Notes: generated by a model from the letters alone, not told the origin. A DNA stretch of 12,214 nt from Promethearchaeati archaeon (GCA_013166835.1 JABLTI010000078.1:1-12214), one strand, 5' to 3'; shown: positions 1-12,214, counted from the stretch's first letter. Program-made: numbers and translations.

Positions 1-1317
1 TATCAGATGAAACAGAATTTTCCACTAGCGCAAGAAACTTTTGAGCAAATTATCAAAATTGATAAGAATGATTTTCCATCTTGGAACAACCTTGGGAATG
101 TTCACTTAGCAAAGAAAGAATACAAGAAAGCGATTAAATGTTATGAAAAGGCGCTTAAGATTCAACCAAATTATTATCTCTCAATGCACAACATTGGAAA
201 TGCATATGGGAACATGGGAGATTTCAAAAAAGCAATAGAGTATTTCGAAGAAGCATTGAAAGTAAAACCTGATTTCCTACCATCCTTAAGCTATATTGCT
301 TTAGCATATACGAACTTGAATAATTATGATAAGGTAGTTGAATACCAGAAGAAAATGCTGGAAATAACACCAGACGATATAAAAATTACCTTTGGATTAG
401 GATTTTCATATTTAAGGATGGGCAAATACAAGGAATCAATTATTGAATATGAGAAAGTGCTTGAAAGTGATCCTAAAAACATGGATGCCTTGTTTAATAT
501 TGCCCTAGCGTATTCACACTTGAAAGAATTTGCAAAAGCAATTAGTCACTTTGAAACTGTTCTTGAAAACAATCCAAAGGATTACGAAGTTTTAGCAAGG
601 ATAGGAAAATGTTATTTTGACTCAGGTAATTTCGAGCAAGCTGTTGATTATTATCAAAAATGTTTAGATATTCAACCAGATTTAGTGGTTGTTTTGGTAG
701 ATATAGCTATTGCTTATTTTAATTTGAATAAGAAAGAAGAAGCACTCAAAAACTATCAAAAAGCTTGGGAATTAGAACCGAAGAATCTTACATTCATTTT
801 TGATATTGGAAGAATCTATATTGAGATGAATGAACTAGATAAAGCAATTCACATGTACAAACAAGCTTTGGAAATCGATGAAAAGTATGAACTTGCATGG
901 TCTCAAATAGCTTACTTGTACATGAAAACTAAAAATTACGAGGAAGCTTTGCTTTATAGTGAAAAATCAATTGAATTAAATCCTAATAACTATAATGTCT
1001 ACAATAATCTTGGGTATGTCTACTTAGGAATGGATGATCTCGAGAAAGCAATAGAGTGTTGGGAAAAATCTCTGGAATTAAATCCAGAATATGCATATGC
1101 TTGGCATTCTTTAGGTGAAGGATATGAAAAGAAAGAGGAACTAGAAAAAGCATTAAAGTTTTACATGAAAGCTTTGTCTATACATCCTGAAACTCAAATT
1201 TTCATTGATTCAGTAAAGCTACTTTATGAAAAACTTGGGAAAGAATACAATCTAAAATTAGTGCAAAAAGAAGCAGAAAAATTGAAGGGCAAAAAGATGG
1301 ATCCCAAGAATCCCTGA
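1..1317 (+). CDS. Tetratricopeptide repeat protein (11 complete TPRs plus a partial one), 5'-truncated at the window edge
   Basis: There are eleven consecutive 34-aa units with TPR consensus, e.g. SWNNLGNVHLAKKEYKKAIKCYEKALKIQP and AWHSLGEGYEKKEELEKALKFYMKALSIHP. The frame is open to base 1 (TAT CAG ATG), and the first residues look like the second helix of a TPR, so ATG at 7 is probably internal. Confidence 0.93.
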   Translation, partial: YQMKQNFPLAQETFEQIIKIDKNDFPSWNNLGNVHLAKKEYKKAIKCYEKALKIQPNYYLSMHNIGNAYGNMGDFKKAIEYFEEALKVKPDFLPSLSYIALAYTNLNNYDKVVEYQKKMLEITPDDIKITFGLGFSYLRMGKYKESIIEYEKVLESDPKNMDALFNIALAYSHLKEFAKAISHFETVLENNPKDYEVLARIGKCYFDSGNFEQAVDYYQKCLDIQPDLVVVLVDIAIAYFNLNKKEEALKNYQKAWELEPKNLTFIFDIGRIYIEMNELDKAIHMYKQALEIDEKYELAWSQIAYLYMKTKNYEEALLYSEKSIELNPNNYNVYNNLGYVYLGMDDLEKAIECWEKSLELNPEYAYAWHSLGEGYEKKEELEKALKFYMKALSIHPETQIFIDSVKLLYEKLGKEYNLKLVQKEAEKLKGKKMDPKNP

Positions 1318-1344: not shown

Positions 1345-3480
1345 TCATTGCCTATTTTTCTTAATATATCTATAAAAGAAGAAGGTAGCAACAGGGATAA
1401 TTATTAGCATAATGTAATAATTATTTGGAGAAAAGCCCATTTTTATTTGAACAATATCTGATACTGGTCCCCAAAACACGCTGCTTGGTTCTGAATTCAT
1501 CGTTCTGAATCGACATCTAAAATAGTATTCATGCCCACTCAATTGACTCACATCGAATTCTTCTATAAACCAGGTATTTGTAATATTATCCCATTCCAAA
1601 TCTCCAGTATAAATTGTAGTGGCACCATCAAAATAGAATAGCTGCCATTTAGCTTGTCTTTGATCACTGCCATATACATACTTTTCAGATATTTGATGAT
1701 TGTTTAGTTGTATATTTTGGTAATCTTGCACAGCAGTGATTGCTGAGGCTCCTAAAGTATTACTTTTTTCGAAATAATGAATTTGAGGTTTTGAGCTTGA
1801 CAGAATATGGTTTCTTGTTTTGAATAAATGAATCCCATTATGACGAGCATAATTGTAATAATATACTGAATATGGTGTCTCATATTCTGTTCCAATTGGC
1901 AAATTCGAAAGATTAAATTTAATCACAATAAAACACTCAACAAATTCAGTTGTTAAAACCCACCCGATATCCATATTTGTTGCAGACCAAGTTTTAGTTT
2001 GATTATTAAATTCAAGTTGTCCATGAACAGGATTACCTTGTGTATCTATCACAGGAACTCCAAAGACATAATTTGGATAAATAATATCATAACTTCCATA
2101 ATACAATATCCATTCAGCTAAGTTCACATTAGAATCATTTACTATTTCATAACCAGGATTATTTTCTAGTGCTGGAGTTGCATCAGAAATATTTACACTA
2201 AATGCATCAGATAGATATTCATAATGGAAATCCGGAAATGTCATGTTAAAGAAATTAAAATGAAAAATCTCCGAAGTTAGATTACTCCAAATATAAGAAG
2301 ACTTTGTAGTTTGGAAGCAATAAATAAGACTGTGTGTGGTATTAAATGCCATTCCATTCGTCAAGGATTTTGGATAAAACCATTTCTTTGAAACATTATT
2401 ATACACAAATTGATTGTTTTCCTCAGACATAGATATAATTAATGATGTTTGATCATAGTATAAGTAATAAAATTCTGCTTTTGATGTGTTTTCTTCTGTT
2501 AAAATATTGGTGCTTGAATTATCAGAAAAAGTAACTTCAAATTCCGGGATTTCAATTTGTCCATCGGAATCATAAAACGTGAAGCTTGGATCTGGTAAAC
2601 TTATGTACTGTAAATTTGCTTCAATAATTGCTGCGTTTATACTGGAATAAATTGCTTCTACAGAATATTCCAAACAAGTTTCAACATCATCATGATATGA
2701 ACTAATCCATTGATTCGCATGAAGAATCGAGTCATTAAAATTATCACCTAAACCTTGAGCAACTGGATGAATATTTTTAGCTAGATTTATTGTGGCATTG
2801 TATGCATCTTCATCCGCTACAATTGCAGGTTCTAGATTGAAATAATCATTCTTTATGTTTGTATAATTAAGAAATCTAAAATTGATTTCTATTTGTGGTA
2901 AACTATTAATCACATTTCCCCTTTCGATTGCTAATTCAAAATCTGTCCAATTCTCTTGACTTAGCGTCCCCCACAAGGTTTCATCCCAAATTGATCCCCA
3001 AACACCTGCTTGAGAAATGTAATGACTAAGAGCTCCAGCATAAAATGCTGCTAAGGAATAATTGGGATGTATCTTCTTCAATTCAAGAACGAGTTTAATG
3101 TATTCTTCACTTGCTCTTAAAGCAAGGGAATCATTAGTAACACTCGTTCCTAAAACATCGAGATATAACACATAACTATTGATGTCTCCATAATCATTAC
3201 TGTCTAATCCATGTTGAATGCAGGCTTCATCATTCAGTGCTGCTTCTACTCCCTGCCAAAAACTCAAGTAGTTAATAGTTATCCATTGAATTTGGGCATC
3301 AAGGAATAATTTGATAGCTTCAATAGCCAACCACTGATGAGTAGAGAAAGATGGATTTGTTGCTAATTGAGGATTCTCCGTAATCTCAGCAAACCAACTT
3401 TTCGAGTTTTGAGGGAATGCAACTACAAATAATGATAAGAGTATGCAAAATTTGATTATCCTAAAATCTCTCTTCAACAC
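1345..3480 (-). CDS. Secreted, C-terminally anchored protein with an N-terminal Zn-dependent phospholipase C/S1-P1 nuclease-like domain and three beta-rich repeats
   Basis: GTG start with GAGG just upstream. A signal peptide ends SKS|W, followed by 'W...STHQWLAIEA' and 'AAFYAGALSHYISQ', which match the W...H and GxxxHYxxD pattern of the PLC/P1 fold. The C-terminus has a hydrophobic helix plus a basic tail (YIMLIIIPVATFFFYRYIKKNRQ), and the protein has many N-x-S/T sequons. Confidence 0.6.
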   Translation of the reverse strand: MLKRDFRIIKFCILLSLFVVAFPQNSKSWFAEITENPQLATNPSFSTHQWLAIEAIKLFLDAQIQWITINYLSFWQGVEAALNDEACIQHGLDSNDYGDINSYVLYLDVLGTSVTNDSLALRASEEYIKLVLELKKIHPNYSLAAFYAGALSHYISQAGVWGSIWDETLWGTLSQENWTDFELAIERGNVINSLPQIEINFRFLNYTNIKNDYFNLEPAIVADEDAYNATINLAKNIHPVAQGLGDNFNDSILHANQWISSYHDDVETCLEYSVEAIYSSINAAIIEANLQYISLPDPSFTFYDSDGQIEIPEFEVTFSDNSSTNILTEENTSKAEFYYLYYDQTSLIISMSEENNQFVYNNVSKKWFYPKSLTNGMAFNTTHSLIYCFQTTKSSYIWSNLTSEIFHFNFFNMTFPDFHYEYLSDAFSVNISDATPALENNPGYEIVNDSNVNLAEWILYYGSYDIIYPNYVFGVPVIDTQGNPVHGQLEFNNQTKTWSATNMDIGWVLTTEFVECFIVIKFNLSNLPIGTEYETPYSVYYYNYARHNGIHLFKTRNHILSSSKPQIHYFEKSNTLGASAITAVQDYQNIQLNNHQISEKYVYGSDQRQAKWQLFYFDGATTIYTGDLEWDNITNTWFIEEFDVSQLSGHEYYFRCRFRTMNSEPSSVFWGPVSDIVQIKMGFSPNNYYIMLIIIPVATFFFYRYIKKNRQ

Positions 3481-3570: not shown

Positions 3571-3616
3571 GAAAAGAAAAAGAAAAGAGAATATGTCTAT
3601 TATGTAATAGACATAT
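3571..3616 (-). terminator. Hairpin over the stop codon followed by a pyrimidine tract
   Basis: A perfect 12-bp inverted repeat ATATGTCTATTA-TG-TAATAGACATAT lies at 3591-3616 and spans the TAA TAG stops. On the minus strand it is followed by TCTCTTTTCTTTTTCTTTTCC. Confidence 0.6.
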
Positions 3617-4955
3617 CAAAAACTAAGAAATTATTATATTCATCTATGAATCCATTGAATGGATTATCATTTGAATCGCCAGGATAAGCCCAGAAGTCCG
3701 TTCCAATAAAACTCATCGTTCCATAACCAGCGACAAAGAGATACAATAATTCATCATCTAAGTCTGGGAATTCTGATTTTGACATATTGAATTCAAACAT
3801 TCTGTGATCCTCAGAACACTTAACACTTGGTCCATATGACCATGCAATATCATAGTTTCCTTGAGATATAGTATTCTCAATTAACGTAGTTAGGTAAGTT
3901 GTTCGCATTCTTAGGGCTAAATAATCAATGTTTAATTCATATGCTGTTGGATGGGTTGCATTATAATTATTCCAACAATGAATTGTAAAATAGAACATCC
4001 CATTAGAAGCATTGACTCCAGAATGATCAAAATCAACACTACCACTTACTAATGTATCATTTGGAAAATTAATGGTATTCATATCACTTGTGAAATTAGC
4101 TTCATCTGTAAAATTCCCTGGCATGCCATCATGTTCTGCAACACCACAATAGAAATTCTCAGCTTTATTCAAATTCTCAGTATTATTTGCAGTTAAGTTT
4201 GAGGATATAACATAATTCAAACGCAAATCTAACAAATCTGCTAGAAAAGTTGTGATGTTTTGCTCTGGGAATTTCTCTGTTATATTTACGCCAAATTGTA
4301 TGTCAACATAATCCCCAACATCCCAAGTTCCTTCAGGAGTTGTGTTGAATGATTCAAAAGTATAACTCTTATCATCATAATTGTACCAGAAGTCTAGATA
4401 ATTCGAACTTGTGTTTCCATTAATTATTTCAATTGAATCGTATTCGGGAACAATTGGTATTTGATTATATGTTTGCGGAACAATCTCTGTTCCCAAGGAA
4501 TAATCAAATGTTTTACTTTGATTGACATCATAATAGAGATATTCAAAACCATAATTTGTTAGGGCTTGAAATGCTAGGCGAGAATTCAATATATCTGGCA
4601 TTCTATTTGCGAGAAAGTATGAAATCCATTCTCCATTCTTATTATTAGTGCGATCAGAACAAAGATCTAAAGCAATATAGTAGTTTTCTTCGTCTTCTCC
4701 TACACTCAGATAATTCCATCCATCGACGTTTTGCTTTCCTTCTATTGGATCTATCGCATTATCAACATCCAAATAAAATGGAATATTATAATAAGCTGCT
4801 CGTTTCCATTCCTTCTTCTCTATTATCCCATCAACAGTTGGTGTGATTGGTTTTGGGTTATTGGTAAATTGGAAATCATTTCCCCAAACAAACCCAAATA
4901 TGAGAGAAGCACCGGAAACAATAACAATTAAAGATATAGCTAATCCTTTTTTCAT
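3600..4955 (-). CDS. Membrane-anchored or secreted protein with a CBM9/DOMON-like domain and a large insertion
   Basis: It has an N-terminal hydrophobic helix. The motifs PTVDGIIEKKEW, YLSVGEDEENYYIALD and the C-terminal HRMFEFNMSKSEF resemble CBM9/DOMON-like strands. I counted 13 N-x-S/T sequons. Confidence 0.55.
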   Translation of the reverse strand: MKKGLAISLIVIVSGASLIFGFVWGNDFQFTNNPKPITPTVDGIIEKKEWKRAAYYNIPFYLDVDNAIDPIEGKQNVDGWNYLSVGEDEENYYIALDLCSDRTNNKNGEWISYFLANRMPDILNSRLAFQALTNYGFEYLYYDVNQSKTFDYSLGTEIVPQTYNQIPIVPEYDSIEIINGNTSSNYLDFWYNYDDKSYTFESFNTTPEGTWDVGDYVDIQFGVNITEKFPEQNITTFLADLLDLRLNYVISSNLTANNTENLNKAENFYCGVAEHDGMPGNFTDEANFTSDMNTINFPNDTLVSGSVDFDHSGVNASNGMFYFTIHCWNNYNATHPTAYELNIDYLALRMRTTYLTTLIENTISQGNYDIAWSYGPSVKCSEDHRMFEFNMSKSEFPDLDDELLYLFVAGYGTMSFIGTDFWAYPGDSNDNPFNGFIDEYNNFLVFDMSIT

Positions 4956-5195: not shown

Positions 5196-5657
5196 ATGAA
5201 GAGAAAAATTATCATAATTGTTCTTTCAGTAATCATACTTGCTGGAACCGGTACTGGGTTAGGGTTATATTTCTGGTTGAATCCACTTGGAGGAGTGAAC
5301 GAACAACTAGAACCGGGGACTGTACTTTCTGATGGAAATTTTGTCGCAATTGATACATCACATTGGGGTACAGGAAAAGTTCAAATTGTGCAATTAGTGA
5401 ATGGAAGTTTACAACTGCAATTTGATAGAGTTGAGATTGCAAATGGACCTGATTTGTATGTATATCTGTCAAATAAAACCTCATTTACAGGTATAGCTGA
5501 TAGTCCTGGTCCTTACGTCGATTTAGGACAATTACCATATAATGAAGGCCGTTTTAGCATGGATATTCCAGGAAGTACAAACCTAACAGAAGTAAACTCA
5601 GTTCTAATTTGGTGCTTAGCATTTACAGTCGTATTTACCTATGCTTCACTAAGTTAA
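5196..5657 (+). CDS. DM13 domain protein with an N-terminal membrane anchor
   Basis: It shows DM13 hallmarks: G-x-F...H-x-G-x-G-x-V, NGPDLYVYLS, VDLGQL and SVLIWCLAFTVVF. The N-terminus is MKRK followed by a transmembrane helix. Confidence 0.9.
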   Translation: MKRKIIIIVLSVIILAGTGTGLGLYFWLNPLGGVNEQLEPGTVLSDGNFVAIDTSHWGTGKVQIVQLVNGSLQLQFDRVEIANGPDLYVYLSNKTSFTGIADSPGPYVDLGQLPYNEGRFSMDIPGSTNLTEVNSVLIWCLAFTVVFTYASLS

Positions 5658-5713
5658 TTAAAGAAATAAAAGAAAGAGATCTAGTACAATAGGTTTTGAG
5701 TAGATAAAAGAAT

Positions 5714-5745
5714 GTGAAGAAATGAATCTTCACTTTTTATTTATT
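5714..5745. terminator. Probable bidirectional terminator hairpin between the convergent DM13 gene and hdrB
   Basis: GTGAAGA-AATGAA-TCTTCAC (5714-5733) is followed by TTTTTATTTATT on the plus strand and ATTCTTTT on the minus strand. A further minus-strand U-rich tract lies at about 5660-5680. Confidence 0.55.
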
Positions 5746-6603
5746 GACTAATTCTTCCCAACCAGTGAGATTGAATTGCAATCCAAGTTTTTCTTCATCC
5801 ATACCTAAAGCTAAACCAATGTACTGAGAAAGATACATAGCAGGGAGTTTCACGTCCTTTCCTAAAACTTTTCCAGCAACATCTTGGGAAGCTCCCAATT
5901 GTTTGTGGCAGAAGGGACAAATATTCGCAATGCTATTGTAACCTCTTAGTTTCATGATTTCGACTTTTTCTCCTGAAACTTTAAGCGCTTTTTCCGCATC
6001 AACACCAATAGTTGTTGCAGAACAACAGTCAAGAAGTTCAGGATATGCAGGAGATTTTGCACCAAGGACTTCTAAAATCTCTTGGATGTGAGTTGGTTGT
6101 TCGTGATGATCAGGACGCTTAATGGTCTTGGGTCTAATAGCATGGCAACCGTAATGTGCTGCAGTAACAAATCCTTTAAGCTTCTTTTTTACGCTCTTCT
6201 GTATCTTCTCGAGACCAATGTCTTCATAGAGAATCTCAAGAATATTTCTTACGGGAAGAGAACCATCATAATGTAAGCCTTCTTTTGCTAAAGCTTCATT
6301 GATTAATTCAACTATATCCGGATGATGCTCTAATTCATGATCCAATTCACTTAATGAGAGATCGCAACCATTACAAATTGTTGCAATTGCTTCATAGCCT
6401 TGTTTCTTTGCTAATGCATGAACTCTGGCAGCTAAGAACGCCCACATAGAATGCTTTGTAGTTTTTATTGGTGTTCCACAACAGCTTTGATCTTCTATAT
6501 CTTGAAAATCGATCCCATAATGTGTTAAAATTGCTCGAGAGCTTATCTCGTTTTCGTAACTATCAGCTTGAGAGGTACAACCTGTGAAGAAACCGTATTT
6601 CAT
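5737..6603 (-). CDS. hdrB: Heterodisulfide reductase subunit B (two CCG domains)
   Basis: All ten Cys of two CCG domains are present: GC...SCCG...ICNGC and HYGCH...DCCS...ICPFC. The C-terminus reads SQYIGLALG. It overlaps hdrC by ATGA and has GGAGG at 6611-6615. Confidence 0.95.
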   Translation of the reverse strand: MKYGFFTGCTSQADSYENEISSRAILTHYGIDFQDIEDQSCCGTPIKTTKHSMWAFLAARVHALAKKQGYEAIATICNGCDLSLSELDHELEHHPDIVELINEALAKEGLHYDGSLPVRNILEILYEDIGLEKIQKSVKKKLKGFVTAAHYGCHAIRPKTIKRPDHHEQPTHIQEILEVLGAKSPAYPELLDCCSATTIGVDAEKALKVSGEKVEIMKLRGYNSIANICPFCHKQLGASQDVAGKVLGKDVKLPAMYLSQYIGLALGMDEEKLGLQFNLTGWEELVNK

Positions 6604-7139
6604 TTTTCTTCCTCCGCTTTCTTTATTTCAAGTACTTGGTCAGCTCCTACTATTTTCAGAGCTTCCTGGAATTTTTCAGGATCTTTTATCCCTCTTGCTG
6701 GTAATTCTAAATCTTCTCTAGTGAGAAAATCGAAATCAGTTGTTTGCGCTTCTCGAGGTTGAATGATCGCTCCATTTGCTTTTACTGCTCGGATCATTTC
6801 TGTGAATACTTTTGGTGGAGCTATCCCACGATTAACAGCAATATTAGTTAGTGAACTGATGGTTTGTACTGGAGAGGTATTCATTGGGCATCTCGTTTGG
6901 CAAGTTAAACAATTCATACAATACCACAGAATGCCTGACTCTATTAGATCTTCAACAAAACCCATATGAGCTGCCACTTGGATTTTATGCGGTGCAAACC
7001 CTTCAAAGATTTTGTTTGCAGGACATCCATTTGTACATTTTATACAAGTATAGCAGTCCTCTGGTTTAGCTTCATCTGAGATAGCTTTTATTTTATTAGC
7101 TAGCTCTTTATCTCGAGAACTGTATTCGATAGTATCCAA
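6600..7139 (-). CDS. hdrC: Heterodisulfide reductase subunit C (2x[4Fe-4S])
   Basis: It has CYTCIKCTNGCP and LWYCMNCLTCQTRCP motifs, a TTG start with GGAGG at 7147-7151, and sits directly before hdrB. Confidence 0.93.
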   Translation of the reverse strand: MDTIEYSSRDKELANKIKAISDEAKPEDCYTCIKCTNGCPANKIFEGFAPHKIQVAAHMGFVEDLIESGILWYCMNCLTCQTRCPMNTSPVQTISSLTNIAVNRGIAPPKVFTEMIRAVKANGAIIQPREAQTTDFDFLTREDLELPARGIKDPEKFQEALKIVGADQVLEIKKAEEEK

Positions 7140-7153
7140 GATTATTCCTCCAA

Positions 7154-7600
7154 CTATTTATTTAGAGGGCTTGGTCCAAGCTCTCTGAGCTTATCTACCA
7201 TCTCGATTACAGTATCTGCGAATTTATTTCCTTCACCTGCTGAGATAAATTCTAAACGCAATCGGTCTTTCTCTATCAGAAATGAGTCCATCAATTTATG
7301 AAGCAAATTCACTCTCTTGTAGGTTTTATAGTTCTGTGAAATATAATGACAATCACCAAGGTGACAAGCAGCAATAAGTACTCCATCAGCTCCGTTCTCA
7401 AACGCGTCAATTACGAATTGTGGATCAACTCTGCCTGAACACATGGTTCTAATAATTCTGATATTTGGTGGATATTTTAATCTTGAGAGTCCAGCCAAAT
7501 CTGCTCCTGCATAAGAACACCAATTACAGCAAAAAGCCAGTAAATTGGGTTCAAATGTCTGATCTTTATTTTTAACAACGGTGGTTGCTTTTTGGTTCAT
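7154..7600 (-). CDS. mvhD: MvhD/FlpD [2Fe-2S] electron-transfer subunit
   Basis: The motifs FCCNWCSYAGADLAG, RTMCSGRVDP, ACHLGDCHY and ISAGEGNKFA are present, with SD-like GGGGGT at 7608-7613. Confidence 0.96.
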   Translation of the reverse strand: MNQKATTVVKNKDQTFEPNLLAFCCNWCSYAGADLAGLSRLKYPPNIRIIRTMCSGRVDPQFVIDAFENGADGVLIAACHLGDCHYISQNYKTYKRVNLLHKLMDSFLIEKDRLRLEFISAGEGNKFADTVIEMVDKLRELGPSPLNK

Positions 7601-7618
7601 ATCTTTGACCCCCGAAAT

Positions 7619-10600
7619 TTAAGATGCGGGTGTTAATGAATCTTTAAATGCATTTTCAATCATTGCTTCGATTTGTGCATCAGTATAGTGATTCATAATT
7701 ATTGCATTTGATGGGCAAGCCACTACACATACGCCGCAGCCTTCACAAAGGATATCATTGATTTTAGATTTTACTAATCCTTCGTCATTTACGATCAACG
7801 ATAAGGCTTGGAATGCACATGTTGAAATGCAAGAGCCACATCCTGCGCAAACGTCTTGATCAATTGAAGCAACAATTGATTCCTTTTCTATCTTTTTGCT
7901 TTTAATAAGTTTCGTTGCTAATGAAGCTGACGCTAAACCTTGTGAAACACTATCTGTAATGTCAAGTGGACCTCTACAAGCACCTGCTATGAACTTCCCA
8001 GAAGAGGCTGTTTCTATTGGGCCGAGTTTTATGTGTTTCTCTATGAAGAAGCCATCTTTATCCATTGAACAACTTAAGAGTTCCCCAATTTTTTTGGATT
8101 CATTTGTTGGTTCCATTGCAGTTTGTAAGATGATTAGATCGGGTTTGTAACGAATGTTTTTATCCAAATCACCATTGTAAACATCAAAGTACATTTTACC
8201 TTCTATATCTTTCCTGATTTCACTTGGAACACCCCTAATGTAATCTACGCCCATGGATCTTGTTTTATTGTATAATTCCTCGTACCCCTTGCCGAATGTT
8301 CGTATGTCTTTATAGAAAAGTATTGTATCAACATCTGATCCAAATTTATTTTTCATCAAGAAAGCATGCTTAATTGAAGCTGTGCAGCAGTATCGTGAAC
8401 AATATTCATGGTAATTAAGGTCTCGACTACCAACACAATTGATGAAAGCTATGGTCTTAGGTTTTTTCCCGGTTGAAGAGATAGTGAGTTTTCCATCTGT
8501 TGGCCCTGCTGAGTTAGTTAATCGTTCGAATTCCATACCTGTAATGATGTCTGGATAGTCAACATCTTTGTAGTGATACTGAGGTATCACGCTGGGATCG
8601 AAAGTTTGGAATCCAGTTGCAGCGATTATTGCACCAACTTTTTCAGTTATTTTTGTTGGCAATGCATTATGATTTATGGCATTCGCTTCACAAATTCTCA
8701 CACACTCTAAACAAACTCCACAATTAGCACAGTGAAGACAACGACTTGCTTCAGCCTTCGCATCTTCTTCAGAGTATGGTTTTACTACCTCAAGATAACA
8801 ATTTTCTAAACGCTTCTCAACAGATTCTTTTGGTAGTGCTTTTCTCTTGACTTTGTTTGCACGTTCTACAGGTATATCTGTAACAACTTTCCCTACTCGA
8901 ACTCTTCCTTTATAAATTTGAGAGTGTGTGGTTACTTCATCTGGTCTACCTAGATGCATATCCTCTCCCTGAATGTATCTGTGAGCTGATTCTGCAGCCC
9001 ATTTTCCAGAAGCAACTGCTTCAATAACTGATTCGGGACTGTAATAGAATTCACCACAACAGAAAATGTGGGGATGGGTTTGAGACTGCAATGTTTTTGC
9101 ATCAAGAATTAAGTTCCCATGTCTATCTACCATATCTTCAGGTATGATAGTTCGATCGAAGTATTGCCCTATGGCAACAAAGACATGATCAAACTTCTCT
9201 TCATACTCTGAACCTTCAATGCAAATAGCCTTTCGTCGACCATCGGCTCCGGGTTCTGTTAGATCGGTTTTCAGGAATTCTACGGCAACAAGTTTTCCAT
9301 TTTTTCCAATGAATTTCACAACTTGTACTTGGCTACTAAGAAGTATACCTTCTTCTATTGCATCATCAATCTCTTCTTGATACGCAGGCATTTCTTCTCT
9401 GCCACGACGATAAAGAAGTTTAACTTCAGATGCTCCAAGACGTTTTGCTACTCGGGCAACATCTACAGCAGTGTTTCCTCCACCAACAATACCAACTTTC
9501 CCTTTTAGTTTGGTTATTTTCTTATCACAAACATCTTTGAGGAAAGTAAGTCCTGGGGTAACTCCTTTGAGATCTTCTCCGTCTACAAACATTTCATAAT
9601 TACCAATCGCACCTGTTGATACAATAACTGCATCATATCCTTTTTTGCGAAGCAATCCTCTTTTCTTCAAATCATCAAAAGTTAATTCCTCGTTTTGCCC
9701 TACTCGGTATCCAGTTTTTAACTCTACTCCGAGGTCAAGAATTCGTTGGATTTCATAATCTAAAACATCCTTTGGTAAACGATAATCAGGTATAGCGTAT
9801 TGGAGTAATCCACCAGCTTTGTCCTTCATTTCATATATAGTAACTTTGTAACCTTTCTTTGCTAGCCACCAAGCTGAAGATAAACCGGAAGGACCTGCAC
9901 CTATGACTGCAATTTTCTCTTTGAAAATCTTTGGAATGGGTTTTACTTTCTCAGCCTTCATTTCCTTTCTTTCGTAATCACAAATGAAATTCTTTAAAGC
10001 ACGAATAGAAACAGGAGCATCTACTTGAGCTCTGCCACAATAATATTCGCAATGTCCTACACAGATTTTGCCACAAACAGATGGAAATGGATTTTCCTCT
10101 CTAATTAACTCGAGAGCTTCTTCATATTTACCCACTGATATTAGATTAACATATCCTTGAACATGAATATCTGCTGGACAACCATCTCTACAAGGTGGGA
10201 TGCCTAATTTGTCTATAGTATAACATTGAGGAACTGCTTGAGGGAAGGGCATATACGTTCCTTTGTGAGTCACTAATCCCACATCAAAAGAACTTATGAT
10301 ATCAGTTGGACAGTTCTTAGTACAATCGCCACAGGCTGTGCATTTTTCTGGATCAATATACATTGGTTTCTGCACTATTTCAATATCAAAGTTTCCAACA
10401 TAACCTGAAACTTTAGTAACTTCAGCATTTGTTAAAAGAGTAATATTTGGGTTATCAATTACTTCAGCCATTTTTGGAGTTAAAATACAAGCAGAACAAT
10501 CCTGAGTCGGAAATGTCTTGTCTAATTGAGCCATTTTTCCACCAATGGTCGCTTCTTTCTCAACTAGAATTGTATCAACTTCCAAATCAGCTAGGGCTAA

Positions 10601-11077
10601 TGATGCAGTGATACCTGTGATTCCTCCACCAATAACCAAAGCTTTTGGTACGCCTGAAACTATGTTTGGACTTAAAGGTTCCAAAAGCGTAGCCCGACTT
10701 ACTGCCATTCTAACAAGAGCTTTAGCTTTTTGAGTTGCTTTTTCAATATCATCCGTAACCCAACTAACCTGTTCTCTGATGTTTGCCATTTCAAACAAGT
10801 ATTTGTTTAATCCTGCCGCTTGCACTGTTTTTCTAAAGGTTTCTTCATGCATTCTAGGACTACAAGAAGAGACAACAATTCGATTCAAATTATGTTCTTC
10901 AATATCTTCTTGTATTTTCTTTTGACTTGGTTTGGAACAGCTATACTTGAAAGTATGAGCATAAACAACATTAGAAAGTGTTTTCGCATATTCAGTTACT
11001 TCTTCACAATTAACGGTGGATGCTATATTTGATCCGCACATACAAATATAGACACCAATCCTTTTTTCCTCGCTCAC
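7619..11077 (-). CDS. hdrA: Large heterodisulfide reductase subunit A (HdrL-like) with an inserted GltD/NfnB-like NAD(P)H oxidoreductase module
   Basis: HdrA motifs: IGVYICMCG, SCSPRMHE, GGGITG, KTFPTQDCSACIL, EFERL, CVGSRD..YCSRYCCTASIK and a C-terminal 2x[4Fe-4S]. Internal GltD-like motifs: PCRDGCP, NPFPSVCGKIC...CE..C, GAGPSG, IPDYRLP, GGGNTAVD, YRR and EASRCLHC. It starts at GTG with GGAGA at 11087-11091. Confidence 0.93.
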   Translation of the reverse strand: MSEEKRIGVYICMCGSNIASTVNCEEVTEYAKTLSNVVYAHTFKYSCSKPSQKKIQEDIEEHNLNRIVVSSCSPRMHEETFRKTVQAAGLNKYLFEMANIREQVSWVTDDIEKATQKAKALVRMAVSRATLLEPLSPNIVSGVPKALVIGGGITGITASLALADLEVDTILVEKEATIGGKMAQLDKTFPTQDCSACILTPKMAEVIDNPNITLLTNAEVTKVSGYVGNFDIEIVQKPMYIDPEKCTACGDCTKNCPTDIISSFDVGLVTHKGTYMPFPQAVPQCYTIDKLGIPPCRDGCPADIHVQGYVNLISVGKYEEALELIREENPFPSVCGKICVGHCEYYCGRAQVDAPVSIRALKNFICDYERKEMKAEKVKPIPKIFKEKIAVIGAGPSGLSSAWWLAKKGYKVTIYEMKDKAGGLLQYAIPDYRLPKDVLDYEIQRILDLGVELKTGYRVGQNEELTFDDLKKRGLLRKKGYDAVIVSTGAIGNYEMFVDGEDLKGVTPGLTFLKDVCDKKITKLKGKVGIVGGGNTAVDVARVAKRLGASEVKLLYRRGREEMPAYQEEIDDAIEEGILLSSQVQVVKFIGKNGKLVAVEFLKTDLTEPGADGRRKAICIEGSEYEEKFDHVFVAIGQYFDRTIIPEDMVDRHGNLILDAKTLQSQTHPHIFCCGEFYYSPESVIEAVASGKWAAESAHRYIQGEDMHLGRPDEVTTHSQIYKGRVRVGKVVTDIPVERANKVKRKALPKESVEKRLENCYLEVVKPYSEEDAKAEASRCLHCANCGVCLECVRICEANAINHNALPTKITEKVGAIIAATGFQTFDPSVIPQYHYKDVDYPDIITGMEFERLTNSAGPTDGKLTISSTGKKPKTIAFINCVGSRDLNYHEYCSRYCCTASIKHAFLMKNKFGSDVDTILFYKDIRTFGKGYEELYNKTRSMGVDYIRGVPSEIRKDIEGKMYFDVYNGDLDKNIRYKPDLIILQTAMEPTNESKKIGELLSCSMDKDGFFIEKHIKLGPIETASSGKFIAGACRGPLDITDSVSQGLASASLATKLIKSKKIEKESIVASIDQDVCAGCGSCISTCAFQALSLIVNDEGLVKSKINDILCEGCGVCVVACPSNAIIMNHYTDAQIEAMIENAFKDSLTPAS

Positions 11078-11332: not shown

Positions 11333-12214
11333 ATGAAAGTTTTAGTTACTGGAGCCTTTGGCAATGTTGGTGCTAGCACCTTAAAGGCTTTAATTGCCAA
11401 AAATAAACATGAAATCACTTGTTTTGATAGACCCAAGCTTATTAATCGAAAAGAATCAAGGAAATTCAAGAAAGACGTTAAAATCATTTGGGGAGACTTG
11501 CGAAATCCGAAAAAAGTAGAAAAAGCAGTTAAAGGTCAAGATATTGTTCTCCATATTGGAGCGATTATCCCACCTGCTGCTAATAGGAGTAGAAAACGAA
11601 CCTTTAATATCAACTTTGGTGGAACAAAAAATATAGTCAATGCAATTGTAAAACAAGCAACCAAACCAAAGATAATCTATACTTCATCAGTAGCTGTGTA
11701 CGGAGATGTAAGAGAACTTGGAGAGCATTGTATAGATATTGATTATCCTTTCAATCCAAGTCCCGATGATTTCTATGCAGTAACGAAAATAAGATCTGAA
11801 GAATATATTCGGGAATCTGGTGTTGATTTTGTTATTTTCAGACTCAGCTATATTCCGAATGCAGAGAAGATTGCTCTCACACCACTAATGTTTCGTATGC
11901 CATTAGATACTCCAATAGAGTTCACACATACTTTAGATACTGGTTTAGCAATAGCAAATACCATCGAGAAAGATGAAATGTTTGGGAATGTATACAACCT
12001 TGGGGGCGGAAAAGAATCTCAAATATATTATAGAGAATTTCTTGAGAACATGTTGCCATTCATGGGAGTAGACATGTTACCCGATGAAGCTTTTAGTACC
12101 GAGCCATTCCATTGTTGTTTCTATGATACTACTGAATTAGAAAAATTACTACAATTCCAAAAACATAACATGAAAGATCTCTATCAAGAAATGGTTGATA
12201 ATACAAGAGCAGCT
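11333..12214 (+). CDS. Extended SDR, NAD-dependent epimerase/dehydratase family; 3'-truncated and absent from the ORF track
   Basis: My manual translation begins MKVLVTGAFGNVGAST (GxxGxxG) and includes VLHIGAIIPP, NINFGGT, YTSSVAVYG, YAVTK (YxxxK) and YNLGGG. GAGGA lies at 11319-11323 and there is no stop before the window end. Confidence 0.92.
   Translation, partial: MKVLVTGAFGNVGASTLKALIAKNKHEITCFDRPKLINRKESRKFKKDVKIIWGDLRNPKKVEKAVKGQDIVLHIGAIIPPAANRSRKRTFNINFGGTKNIVNAIVKQATKPKIIYTSSVAVYGDVRELGEHCIDIDYPFNPSPDDFYAVTKIRSEEYIRESGVDFVIFRLSYIPNAEKIALTPLMFRMPLDTPIEFTHTLDTGLAIANTIEKDEMFGNVYNLGGGKESQIYYREFLENMLPFMGVDMLPDEAFSTEPFHCCFYDTTELEKLLQFQKHNMKDLYQEMVDNTRAA

Follow-up and report, generated by a model that had tools for sequence, protein, structure and literature searches.

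Gene content of the locus

The stretch of DNA examined here (the window) is the entire contig C211, 12,214 bp in length, of a metagenome-assembled genome (MAG) from a Promethearchaeati archaeon (GCA_013166835.1; 3.56 Mb, 260 contigs, 85% complete). Four open reading frames (ORFs) for components of a heterodisulfide reductase (Hdr) were identified head to tail on its minus strand in the order hdrA, mvhD, hdrC and hdrB, the first of which encodes an HdrA carrying an internal FAD and NADP(H) module. The operon encodes a further member of the known and widespread type III HdrA design, a term (classes A9/A10) coined in a 2025 survey in Microbiol Spectr for nine sequences of ANME-1 and Bathyarchaeota (PMC12054007). 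The features of the operon are the following.

7619..11077, minus strand: type III hdrA, 1152 aa, GTG start with GGAG 12 nt upstream; HdrA core with a GltD/NfnL-like insert
10208..11077, minus strand: HdrA residues 1-290; N-terminal [4Fe-4S] domain, first part of the FAD domain and first Cys motif of the inserted ferredoxin domain
8735..10207, minus strand: insert, residues ~291-781 (~490 residues); GltD/NfnL-like FAD and NADP(H) module
7622..8734, minus strand: HdrA residues 782-1152; second Cys motif of the inserted ferredoxin domain, remainder of the FAD domain and C-terminal 2x[4Fe-4S] ferredoxin domain
7154..7600, minus strand: mvhD, 148 aa; [2Fe-2S] adaptor subunit
6600..7139, minus strand: hdrC, 179 aa, TTG start; two CX2CX2CX3CP motifs
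5737..6603, minus strand: hdrB, 288 aa; two CCG domains
5704..5733, minus strand: terminator-like stem-loop, a 7-bp stem followed by a T-rich run, beginning 4 nt past the hdrB stop codon
11078..11332, no strand: divergent intergenic region between hdrA and the epimerase gene, 255 nt, AT-rich; presumed promoters, from reading of the sequence

An earlier interpretation made from the DNA alone (the sequence-only reading) had described these genes as tightly packed, and the ORF coordinates confirm spacers of 18 nt (hdrA/mvhD) and 14 nt (mvhD/hdrC) and an overlap of 4 nt between hdrC and hdrB. The fold energy of the stem-loop is -9.4 kcal/mol (z -3.65), with one of 200 shuffled sequences folding equally well. 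This layout is that of a single transcription unit. Also correct was its description of the surroundings: the operon is bounded by a divergent gene (SDR/epimerase) and a convergent one (DM13), and no mvhA/G, fdh or flx genes were found in the window among the Pfam and NCBIfam matches of its ORFs.

The hdrA ORF is not an assembly chimera, with orthologues of 1152-1153 aa sharing 73-89% identity with it; furthermore, both junctions of the insert are crossed by DNA contigs of other studies (positions 8460-10962 and 8081-9119). In one metatranscriptome run, four short contigs at least 99% identical to the operon were found for hdrC, mvhD, the hdrA-mvhD spacer (7566-7716) and hdrA, a weak hint that the operon is expressed; most of it has no cover in that run, which provides no measure of expression level.

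The nearest protein and DNA relatives of the window carry the labels Candidatus Heimdallarchaeota or 'Asgard group'. An uncultured archaeon of the Heimdall group (Asgard) is the host, which, with no mcrA match in the genome at 85% completeness, is a probable non-methanogen, as had been supposed.

The HdrA core

The 1152-aa protein was found to match HdrA models in two stretches (best NCBIfam match HdrA2, 775.8 bits), and its residues 293-805 match the GltD-like model NF009410 (441 bits) as well as Fer4_20 and Pyr_redox_2. Among solved structures it matches HdrA of the methanogen complex (5odc_A) with an overall E-value of 7e-197, residues 3-290 aligning with 5odc_A 2-290 (370 bits) and residues 782-1147 with 5odc_A 292-653 (294 bits). 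The equivalog cut-offs of methanogen HdrA are missed (NF041778, 545.3 against 1400 bits; NF041891, 550.1 against 1300; NF040770, 775.8 against 1100).

Cofactor ligands were located throughout the core. The part before the insert contains C12, C14, C47 and C72 of the N-terminal [4Fe-4S] domain, GGGITG (150-155), C194 and C197 of the thioredoxin-reductase-like FAD domain, and C246, C249, C252 and C256 as the first Cys motif of the inserted ferredoxin domain; all cysteines of this part are shared by every one of the 14 aligned type III proteins, which were hand-chosen from 120 listed homologues to span 46-77% identity. After the insert follow the second Cys motif of that domain (C783, C786, C789 and C796), the EFER (849-852), CSRYCC (893-898) and K903 of the FAD domain, and the C-terminal 2x[4Fe-4S] ferredoxin domain (C1077-C1121). 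Across the alignment 36 Cys are invariant, enough for eight [4Fe-4S] clusters, alongside two FAD sites.

E851 of EFER was found to align with Glu356 of 5odc_A, and K903, the Lys after CxxxCC, with Lys409; both had been read from the DNA as retained. Glu356 presumably has a role at the HdrA flavin. Lys409 is hydrogen-bonded to N5 of the flavin according to a figure legend in PMC6405883, and C197, K903 and every Cys motif to which PMC6405883 and PMC9012536 assign roles in HdrA are present here, as is E851. An AF2 model of the whole HdrA, built from the 14-row alignment, reached a mean pLDDT of 71.6 and a pTM of 0.49, with values below 50 at the junctions and cluster loops, and Foldseek of this model returned 5odc_A as the top match overall.

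The NADP(H)-type insert

The insertion site lies exactly between residues 290 and 292 of 5odc_A, between the two Cys motifs of the inserted ferredoxin domain. A GltD-like domain within the inserted ferredoxin domain of a type I HdrA is what defines type III HdrA (PMC12054007), and this is the arrangement found. Within the insert, [4Fe-4S] motifs are formed by C296 and C300, C335/C339/C343/C347, and C780 and C783, the FAD site comprises GAGPSG (393-398) and R433, and the NADP(H) site GGGNTA (532-537) and YRR (556-558). Every motif named in the sequence-only reading, which had proposed two FAD-binding sites and one NADP(H)-type site, was thereby located.

The best PDB match of the insert was the NfnL-like domain of NfnA from the Bfu-type NfnABC (9n5u_A, 312 bits), followed by 9bov_A (NfnABC) and 8oh5_C (StnABC) with 294 bits each, and then by Thermotoga NfnB (4ylf_B, 236 bits), Pyrococcus NfnL (5jca_L, 231 bits) and GltD (176 bits). 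Foldseek agrees with this ranking by sequence, and superposition on 5jca_L gave a TM of 0.78 and an rmsd of 3.2 A. These closest solved relatives all bind NADPH, in line with the proposed built-in module. Both GGGNTA and YRR line up with their counterparts in 4ylf_B, 5jca_L, 9n5u_A and 8oh5_C, and by sequence the site has the NfnB/GltD-type NADPH form, GXGXXA with two Arg for the 2'-phosphate. Two conserved Arg hold the NADPH 2'-phosphate in NfnI (PMC6405883), and the Arg pair of YRR would be expected to do the same.

In comparison with NfnB the insert is circularly permuted: PPCRDGCP (294-301) precedes the Rossmann domains and RCLHC (779-783) follows them, the N-terminal 'RCLxC' helix of NfnB aligning at 745-784. 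This permutation, the 'RCxxC' helix after the Rossmann domains and the NADPH site are shared with the NfnL-like domain of NfnA and with StnC (9n5u, 9bov, 8oh5; PMC11829005, PMC10482914). There, the module forms part of an Fdh/NuoG-like subunit and supplies electrons to a flavin-plus-clusters site of NfnB, whereas here it lies within HdrA; in NfnABC, NADPH reduces the FAD and single electrons pass through two clusters to a bifurcation site elsewhere (PMC11829005). With NfnAB/NfnSL (4YLF, 5JCA) the insert shares the fold (TM 0.78-0.79), the FAD and NADPH motifs and R433, which aligns with Arg187 of T. maritima NfnB. Unlike in NfnB/NfnL, defined by RCx2Cx4Cx3CPV followed by GRVCPQExQCx3C (PMC6405883) and by an NfnA partner, the order of cluster motifs is permuted, 'CPQExQC' is replaced by C335x3C339x3C343x3C347, and no NfnA-like gene is present in the window.

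MvhD, HdrC and HdrB

MvhD was identified as a full-length FlpD protein (PF02662; 1.5e-52, with 177.2 bits where the cut-off is 22.3 and with positions 2-123 of the 123 in the profile covered), its PDB matches being 9sw2_D (180 bits) and 5odc_D (175 bits). HdrC consists of a 2x[4Fe-4S] ferredoxin domain, with orthologues aligning across residues 1-179. HdrB aligns end to end with 5odc_B (186 bits) and has two CCG domains (9.1e-24), the second motif reading CCS and not CCG; its TIGR03288 score (213.7) is below the equivalog cut-off of 345, and NCBIfam equivalog cut-offs are also missed by HdrC.

In a tree of 58 MvhD sequences (19 of 77 extracted were dropped for a length outside 100-260 aa), the window MvhD falls in a separate clade with the other type III-linked MvhDs of its genus (support 100/98). 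Type III-linked MvhDs as a whole do not form one clade (five changes, with 39 of 500 shuffles as low), the backbone of the tree being poorly resolved, and the tree is silent on whether the window MvhD has lost or retained hydrogenase docking. Complex prediction of this MvhD with MvhA and MvhG from contig C174 of the same genome was non-specific, a control in which MvhA had been replaced scoring nearly as high, and is evidence neither way.

Other Hdr, hydrogenase and electron transfer genes of the genome

The host genome was also found to hold a canonical Mvh-Hdr locus, spread across contigs C140 (3-4548), C174 (1-4425) and C42 (1-3160). Its order is three 2-oxoacid:ferredoxin oxidoreductase (por) subunits, hdrA (647 aa), mvhD, mvhG, mvhA, hycI, hdrC and hdrB, followed by a ferredoxin gene and a gene for a 550-aa FAD_binding_2 flavoprotein. 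C174 and C140 overlap by exactly 144 nt, while the C174-C42 link rests on complementary hdrB fragments; the same order is contiguous in a congener (G005, L123). The description of the system as hydrogenase-free thus holds for the operon, being kept so in four congeners, and fails for the organism. The HdrB of the canonical locus is only ~24% identical to the window HdrB. The FAD_binding_2 flavoprotein brings thiol:fumarate reductase to mind and might supply a disulfide. Two more matches to [NiFe]-hydrogenase large subunits were observed on C13 (1470-2615) and C11 (8805-9020), the former preceded by an NfnA-like gene fragment (C13:1-498), a pairing that we take to be the one known from group 3b hydrogenases.

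A second type III hdrA, 62-74% identical to that of the operon, is split over C171 (1-1068, minus strand) and C41 (1-2547, plus strand) with a 144-nt overlap (L019, L020). No mvhD or hdrCB adjoins it, and its context (eIF2B and PNP on one side, two Zn-ribbon genes and a NuoE-like gene on the other) is kept in G005 and G003. It has SLE at the position of YRR. By the general rules for Rossmann folds, a site that has lost both Arg and acquired an acidic residue is typically one for NADH, and the second paralog is probably of NADH type. Divergent from this gene and 2.3 kb away, a five-gene cluster was observed (L019, G000:C171, 3295-9750, plus strand) whose products resemble NuoE (a [2Fe-2S] protein), NuoF (625 aa), NuoG (529 aa, the molybdopterin domain being truncated), NfnA/PyrK (290 aa) and GltD/NfnB (541 aa). 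The cluster looks like a Bfu/Nfn-type NAD(P)H-ferredoxin module.

No match to FrhB/FdhB was found in the genome, and a NuoG-like protein was the sole match for an FdhA-type molybdopterin enzyme; at 85% completeness, such absences are not proof.

Distribution and synteny

Matches at E <= 1e-100 were found in 11 of the 41 genomes of the class sample; ten, falling in two genera, carry the insert or are near-identical fragments, and G034 has canonical HdrA only. The order of type III hdrA (hdrA3), mvhD, hdrC and hdrB is kept in G004, G005 and G009 (76-83% identity) and in G002 (a 58% copy), and no mvhA or mvhG was found in the flanks of these four loci. Linkage to hydrogenase genes was found elsewhere. 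In a sister Heimdall family, a single cluster (L122; G038:C21, 5264-17319) combines the hydrogenase with both forms of hdrA, in the order mvhG, mvhA, mvhD, two ferredoxin-domain genes (one Fer4_22), an NfnA-like NAD-binding/[2Fe-2S] gene, hdrA, hdrA3, hycI and mvhD, its type III hdrA having a CLE-type nucleotide site.

In the phylum sample, an even sampling of 201 genomes, insert-bearing HdrA was identified at E <= 1e-150 in 47 genomes, which belong to 18 of 59 genera; the full-length type III form is present in no fewer than 20 of the 47. Among loci outside the phylum (the best 80 of at least 600 stretches), 15 full-length type III genes were found, in Bathyarchaeota, Dehalococcoidia, Desulfobacterota, WOR-3, Eubacteriales, Aminicenantes, Hadarchaeota and others; insert-bearing HdrA also occurs in Chloroflexota. 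For these 15, mvhD lies directly downstream in nine, hdrB and/or hdrC is adjacent in 11, and mvhG and/or mvhA is present in the fetched flanks of eight (L042, L044, L045, L048-L051, L058).

The nucleotide site of 53 alignable insert-bearing ORFs (loci L034-L121) reads YRR in 37, x(L/M)E in 12 and xWF in four, a pattern suggestive of separate NADPH- and NADH-specific lineages. Single in-frame TAG, TAA or TGA codons were observed in several insert-bearing hdrA matches from Asgard genomes (e.g. G168:C56, G203:C144, G081:C29 and G073:C83). Such codons could mark selenocysteine or recoding sites, or else frameshifts or the ends of genes, and PMC11291895 includes HdrA among the Asgard selenoproteins.

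Relation to described Hdr-type enzymes

The fusion was named HdrL in 2009 (Strittmatter) in Desulfobacterium autotrophicum, where it is always followed by mvhD and where NADH was the proposed donor (PMC2702500). In Syntrophobacter fumaroxidans, the HdrABC/HdrL cluster has MvhD without MvhA, and its proteins are abundant in proteomes (PMC5947623). HdrL resembles the present system as an HdrA/glutamate-synthase-type fusion followed by mvhD in a cluster without MvhA, the protein having been detected in proteomes and NAD(P)H input proposed (PMC2702500, PMC5947623). The large bacterial HdrL-type proteins (~1460-1660 aa, e.g. L060-L073) differ in that their insert unit has no N-terminal domain and is fused or adjacent to a second HdrA unit. 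Furthermore, DsrC is the proposed substrate of HdrL, and no DsrC match was found in the genome analysed here.

In archaea, the type III form corresponds to HdrA9-11 of ANME-1, described as having a 500-aa NfnB-like insert (Chadwick et al., PLoS Biol 2022, PMC9012536), and mvhADG adjoins the type III hdrA of Bathyarchaeota, with the insert argued to block the ferredoxin site (PMC12054007). The host of the present operon differs in being one of the Heimdallarchaeia and probably no methane or alkane metaboliser. Where ANME-1 has multi-hdrA clusters and Bathyarchaeota has mvhADG beside the gene, the order here is hdrA3-mvhD-hdrC-hdrB, and where the type III HdrA of PMC12054007 has GXGXXG, with NADH favoured there, the GXGXXA with YRR found here is of NADPH type. 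A full-text literature search (supplements aside) returned no paper describing type III HdrA in Asgard archaea. As the design and the idea of NAD(P)H-linked bifurcation or confurcation had already been published (PMC2702500, PMC9012536, PMC12054007, PMC5947623), the novelty initially ascribed to the operon was overstated.

With the methanogen MvhADG-HdrABC (5ODC), the system shares a full-length HdrA core, MvhD, HdrC and HdrB with conserved cofactor ligands. It is unlike that complex in that the operon lacks mvhAG, an NADP(H) module of 490 residues occupies the ferredoxin-exit domain, and neither mcrA nor ComA had a match in the genome. The combination of mvhA and mvhG with hdr genes that marks MvhADG-HdrABC is lacking in the window and in the four orthologous loci, mvhA/G being on C174, and the flxABCD genes of FlxABCD-HdrABC are likewise not in the window.

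Proposed mechanism and alternatives

On balance, we consider it somewhat probable that type III HdrA, MvhD, HdrC and HdrB form a cytoplasmic flavin-based bifurcating or confurcating enzyme, in which NADPH would be used via the insert and a low-potential partner reached via the C-terminal ferredoxin domain and MvhD. Three arms would meet at the HdrA flavin. By homology, HdrC and HdrB would work on a thiol/disulfide couple. Also by homology, with a direction that we infer, the insert's own FAD would exchange hydride with NADP(H), and single electrons would pass via the two [4Fe-4S] clusters of the insert and the two clusters of the split ferredoxin domain to the HdrA FAD. The third arm, the C-terminal ferredoxin domain and MvhD, may lead to the low-potential partner, either ferredoxin or a docked module such as MvhAG from elsewhere in the genome. 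The HdrA flavin would split electrons between HdrCB and this partner, the likeliest net reaction being 2 NADPH + disulfide + oxidised low-potential acceptor -> 2 NADP+ + 2 thiols + reduced acceptor, or the reverse.

In the solved Hdr complexes, the inserted ferredoxin domain is the low-potential, ferredoxin-side exit, and MvhD feeds the flavin from the other side via the C-terminal ferredoxin domain (PMC9012536, PMC13518236). Because the insert splits the inserted ferredoxin domain, the NADP(H) module would be wired to the former ferredoxin exit and not to MvhD.

Several points weigh against a bifurcating enzyme with NADPH input. Since the branch that bears the insert is the low-potential exit in canonical Hdr, NADPH entry there would require its clusters to be re-tuned. 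NADH is favoured over NADPH in PMC12054007 for its nine type III sequences, and the full-text search on type III HdrA and HdrL returned genomic and proteomic papers only and no biochemical study. The AF2 model, at a pTM of 0.49, gives no reliable inter-domain geometry for cluster distances, and the contigs from the RNA library are possibly derived from DNA, carry-over not being excluded. Finally, McrA, ComA, DsrC and CdhC have no match in the 85%-complete genome; Asgard papers have HdrABC acting with 'an unidentified heterodisulfide' (PMC11291895).

A coupling to hydrogenase is the foremost alternative, possible but rather unlikely. The MvhD of the operon would then dock the MvhAG of the canonical locus, and H2/H+ would be coupled with NADP(H) and disulfide, the NADP(H) module replacing free ferredoxin; an example would be NADPH-driven H2 evolution pulled by disulfide reduction, or its reverse. 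The presence of mvhD-mvhG-mvhA-hycI in the same genome (C174), of mvhG/mvhA beside eight of the 15 full-length type III loci of other lineages, and of a cluster uniting both sets of genes in the sister family (G038) all speak for such a coupling, as does the mvhADG beside the Bathyarchaeota gene, whose insert has been proposed to block the ferredoxin site (PMC12054007). An MvhA match is also present in nine of the ten relatives with the gene; as 27 of the 41 genomes of the class have such a match, this co-occurrence is uninformative. Against it, mvhAG here has its own MvhD and its own canonical HdrA, the window MvhD belongs to the separate type III-linked clade of the genus (100/98), and the operon is kept without hydrogenase genes in four congeners.

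The sequence-only reading had taken the enzyme to be self-contained, coupling NADPH, ferredoxin and disulfide/thiol, with MvhD relaying electrons within the complex; in its strict form, MvhD would carry them from the insert to the HdrA flavin. The operon does lack a donor module in five genomes, and the S. fumaroxidans HdrABC/HdrL cluster, abundant in proteomes, similarly has MvhD without MvhA (PMC5947623). Self-containment is countered by mvhD-mvhG-mvhA in the same genome and by the hydrogenase linkage in other lineages and the sister family. As to the relay, the insert lies within the inserted ferredoxin domain, nothing places it beside MvhD, and MvhD in the solved complexes touches the N- and C-terminal regions of HdrA and docks external modules (PMC9012536, PMC13518236). 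This version therefore appears unlikely.

A plain NADPH:disulfide oxidoreductase without bifurcation, with electrons passing from NADPH to FAD, Fe-S clusters, the HdrA FAD and HdrCB, is if anything slightly less likely still. In its favour, textbook potentials would make such a reaction downhill with any disulfide near -140 mV, and the related modules in GltD, DPD and NfnABC are simple NADPH inputs (PMC11829005; PDB titles). The near-invariance or invariance of the bifurcation-associated residues K903 and E851 and of the eight Cys of the C-terminal ferredoxin domain over 14 divergent sequences, along with the retention and high conservation of MvhD, argues against it.

A more speculative extension, to which we give little probability, concerns the two type III paralogs that the genus retains (the YRR operon copy and the SLE orphan). 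As HdrA is an obligate dimer, it is conceivable that they form a heterodimer on one HdrCB set, which would make a transhydrogenase or bifurcase on an Hdr scaffold linking NADH, NADPH, thiol/disulfide and a low-potential carrier or H2. If true, this would be a route for NADPH electrons into syntrophic H2/ferredoxin metabolism in relatives of the eukaryotic ancestor.

Two bifurcating flavins per polypeptide, an idea raised by Chadwick et al. for ANME-1 (PMC9012536) in which the insert FAD takes the part of the NfnB b-FAD, are highly improbable: R433 does correspond to Arg187 of T. maritima NfnB, which partners N5 of the b-FAD (PMC6405883, legend), but the NfnB motif GRVCPQExQC with its acidic ligand region is replaced, the operon has no NfnA-type [2Fe-2S]/FAD partner, and the closer relatives NfnABC and Stn do not bifurcate at this module (PMC11829005).

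The energy economy of many anaerobes is governed by bifurcating enzymes of the Hdr type, and forms with an NAD(P)H module are abundant among the archaea and bacteria of sediments. The details new to the type III design are the closest similarity of the insert to the NADPH-input, NfnL-like domain of NfnABC/Stn and the presence of an orphan SLE paralog in the same genome. A compact and conserved four-gene operon, with a clear NADPH-type site and an NADH-type paralog, makes this system a convenient candidate for a first biochemical or structural study of type III HdrA.

Neighbouring genes of the window

The two genes that flank the operon are the following.

11333-12214, plus strand: SDR/epimerase gene, divergent from hdrA
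5196-5657, plus strand: small gene with a DM13 domain ('electron transfer DM13', 1.2e-17), convergent with hdrB

The remainder of the window was observed to contain a 436-aa protein made up almost entirely of TPR repeats (ten; 7-1317, plus strand) and two large minus-strand ORFs of 711 aa (1345-3480) and 451 aa (3600-4955) without a Pfam or NCBIfam match. The DM13 and TPR proteins and the 451-aa and 711-aa ORFs are not counted as part of the transcription unit, because none of them had a match above 60 bits in the eight related loci searched.

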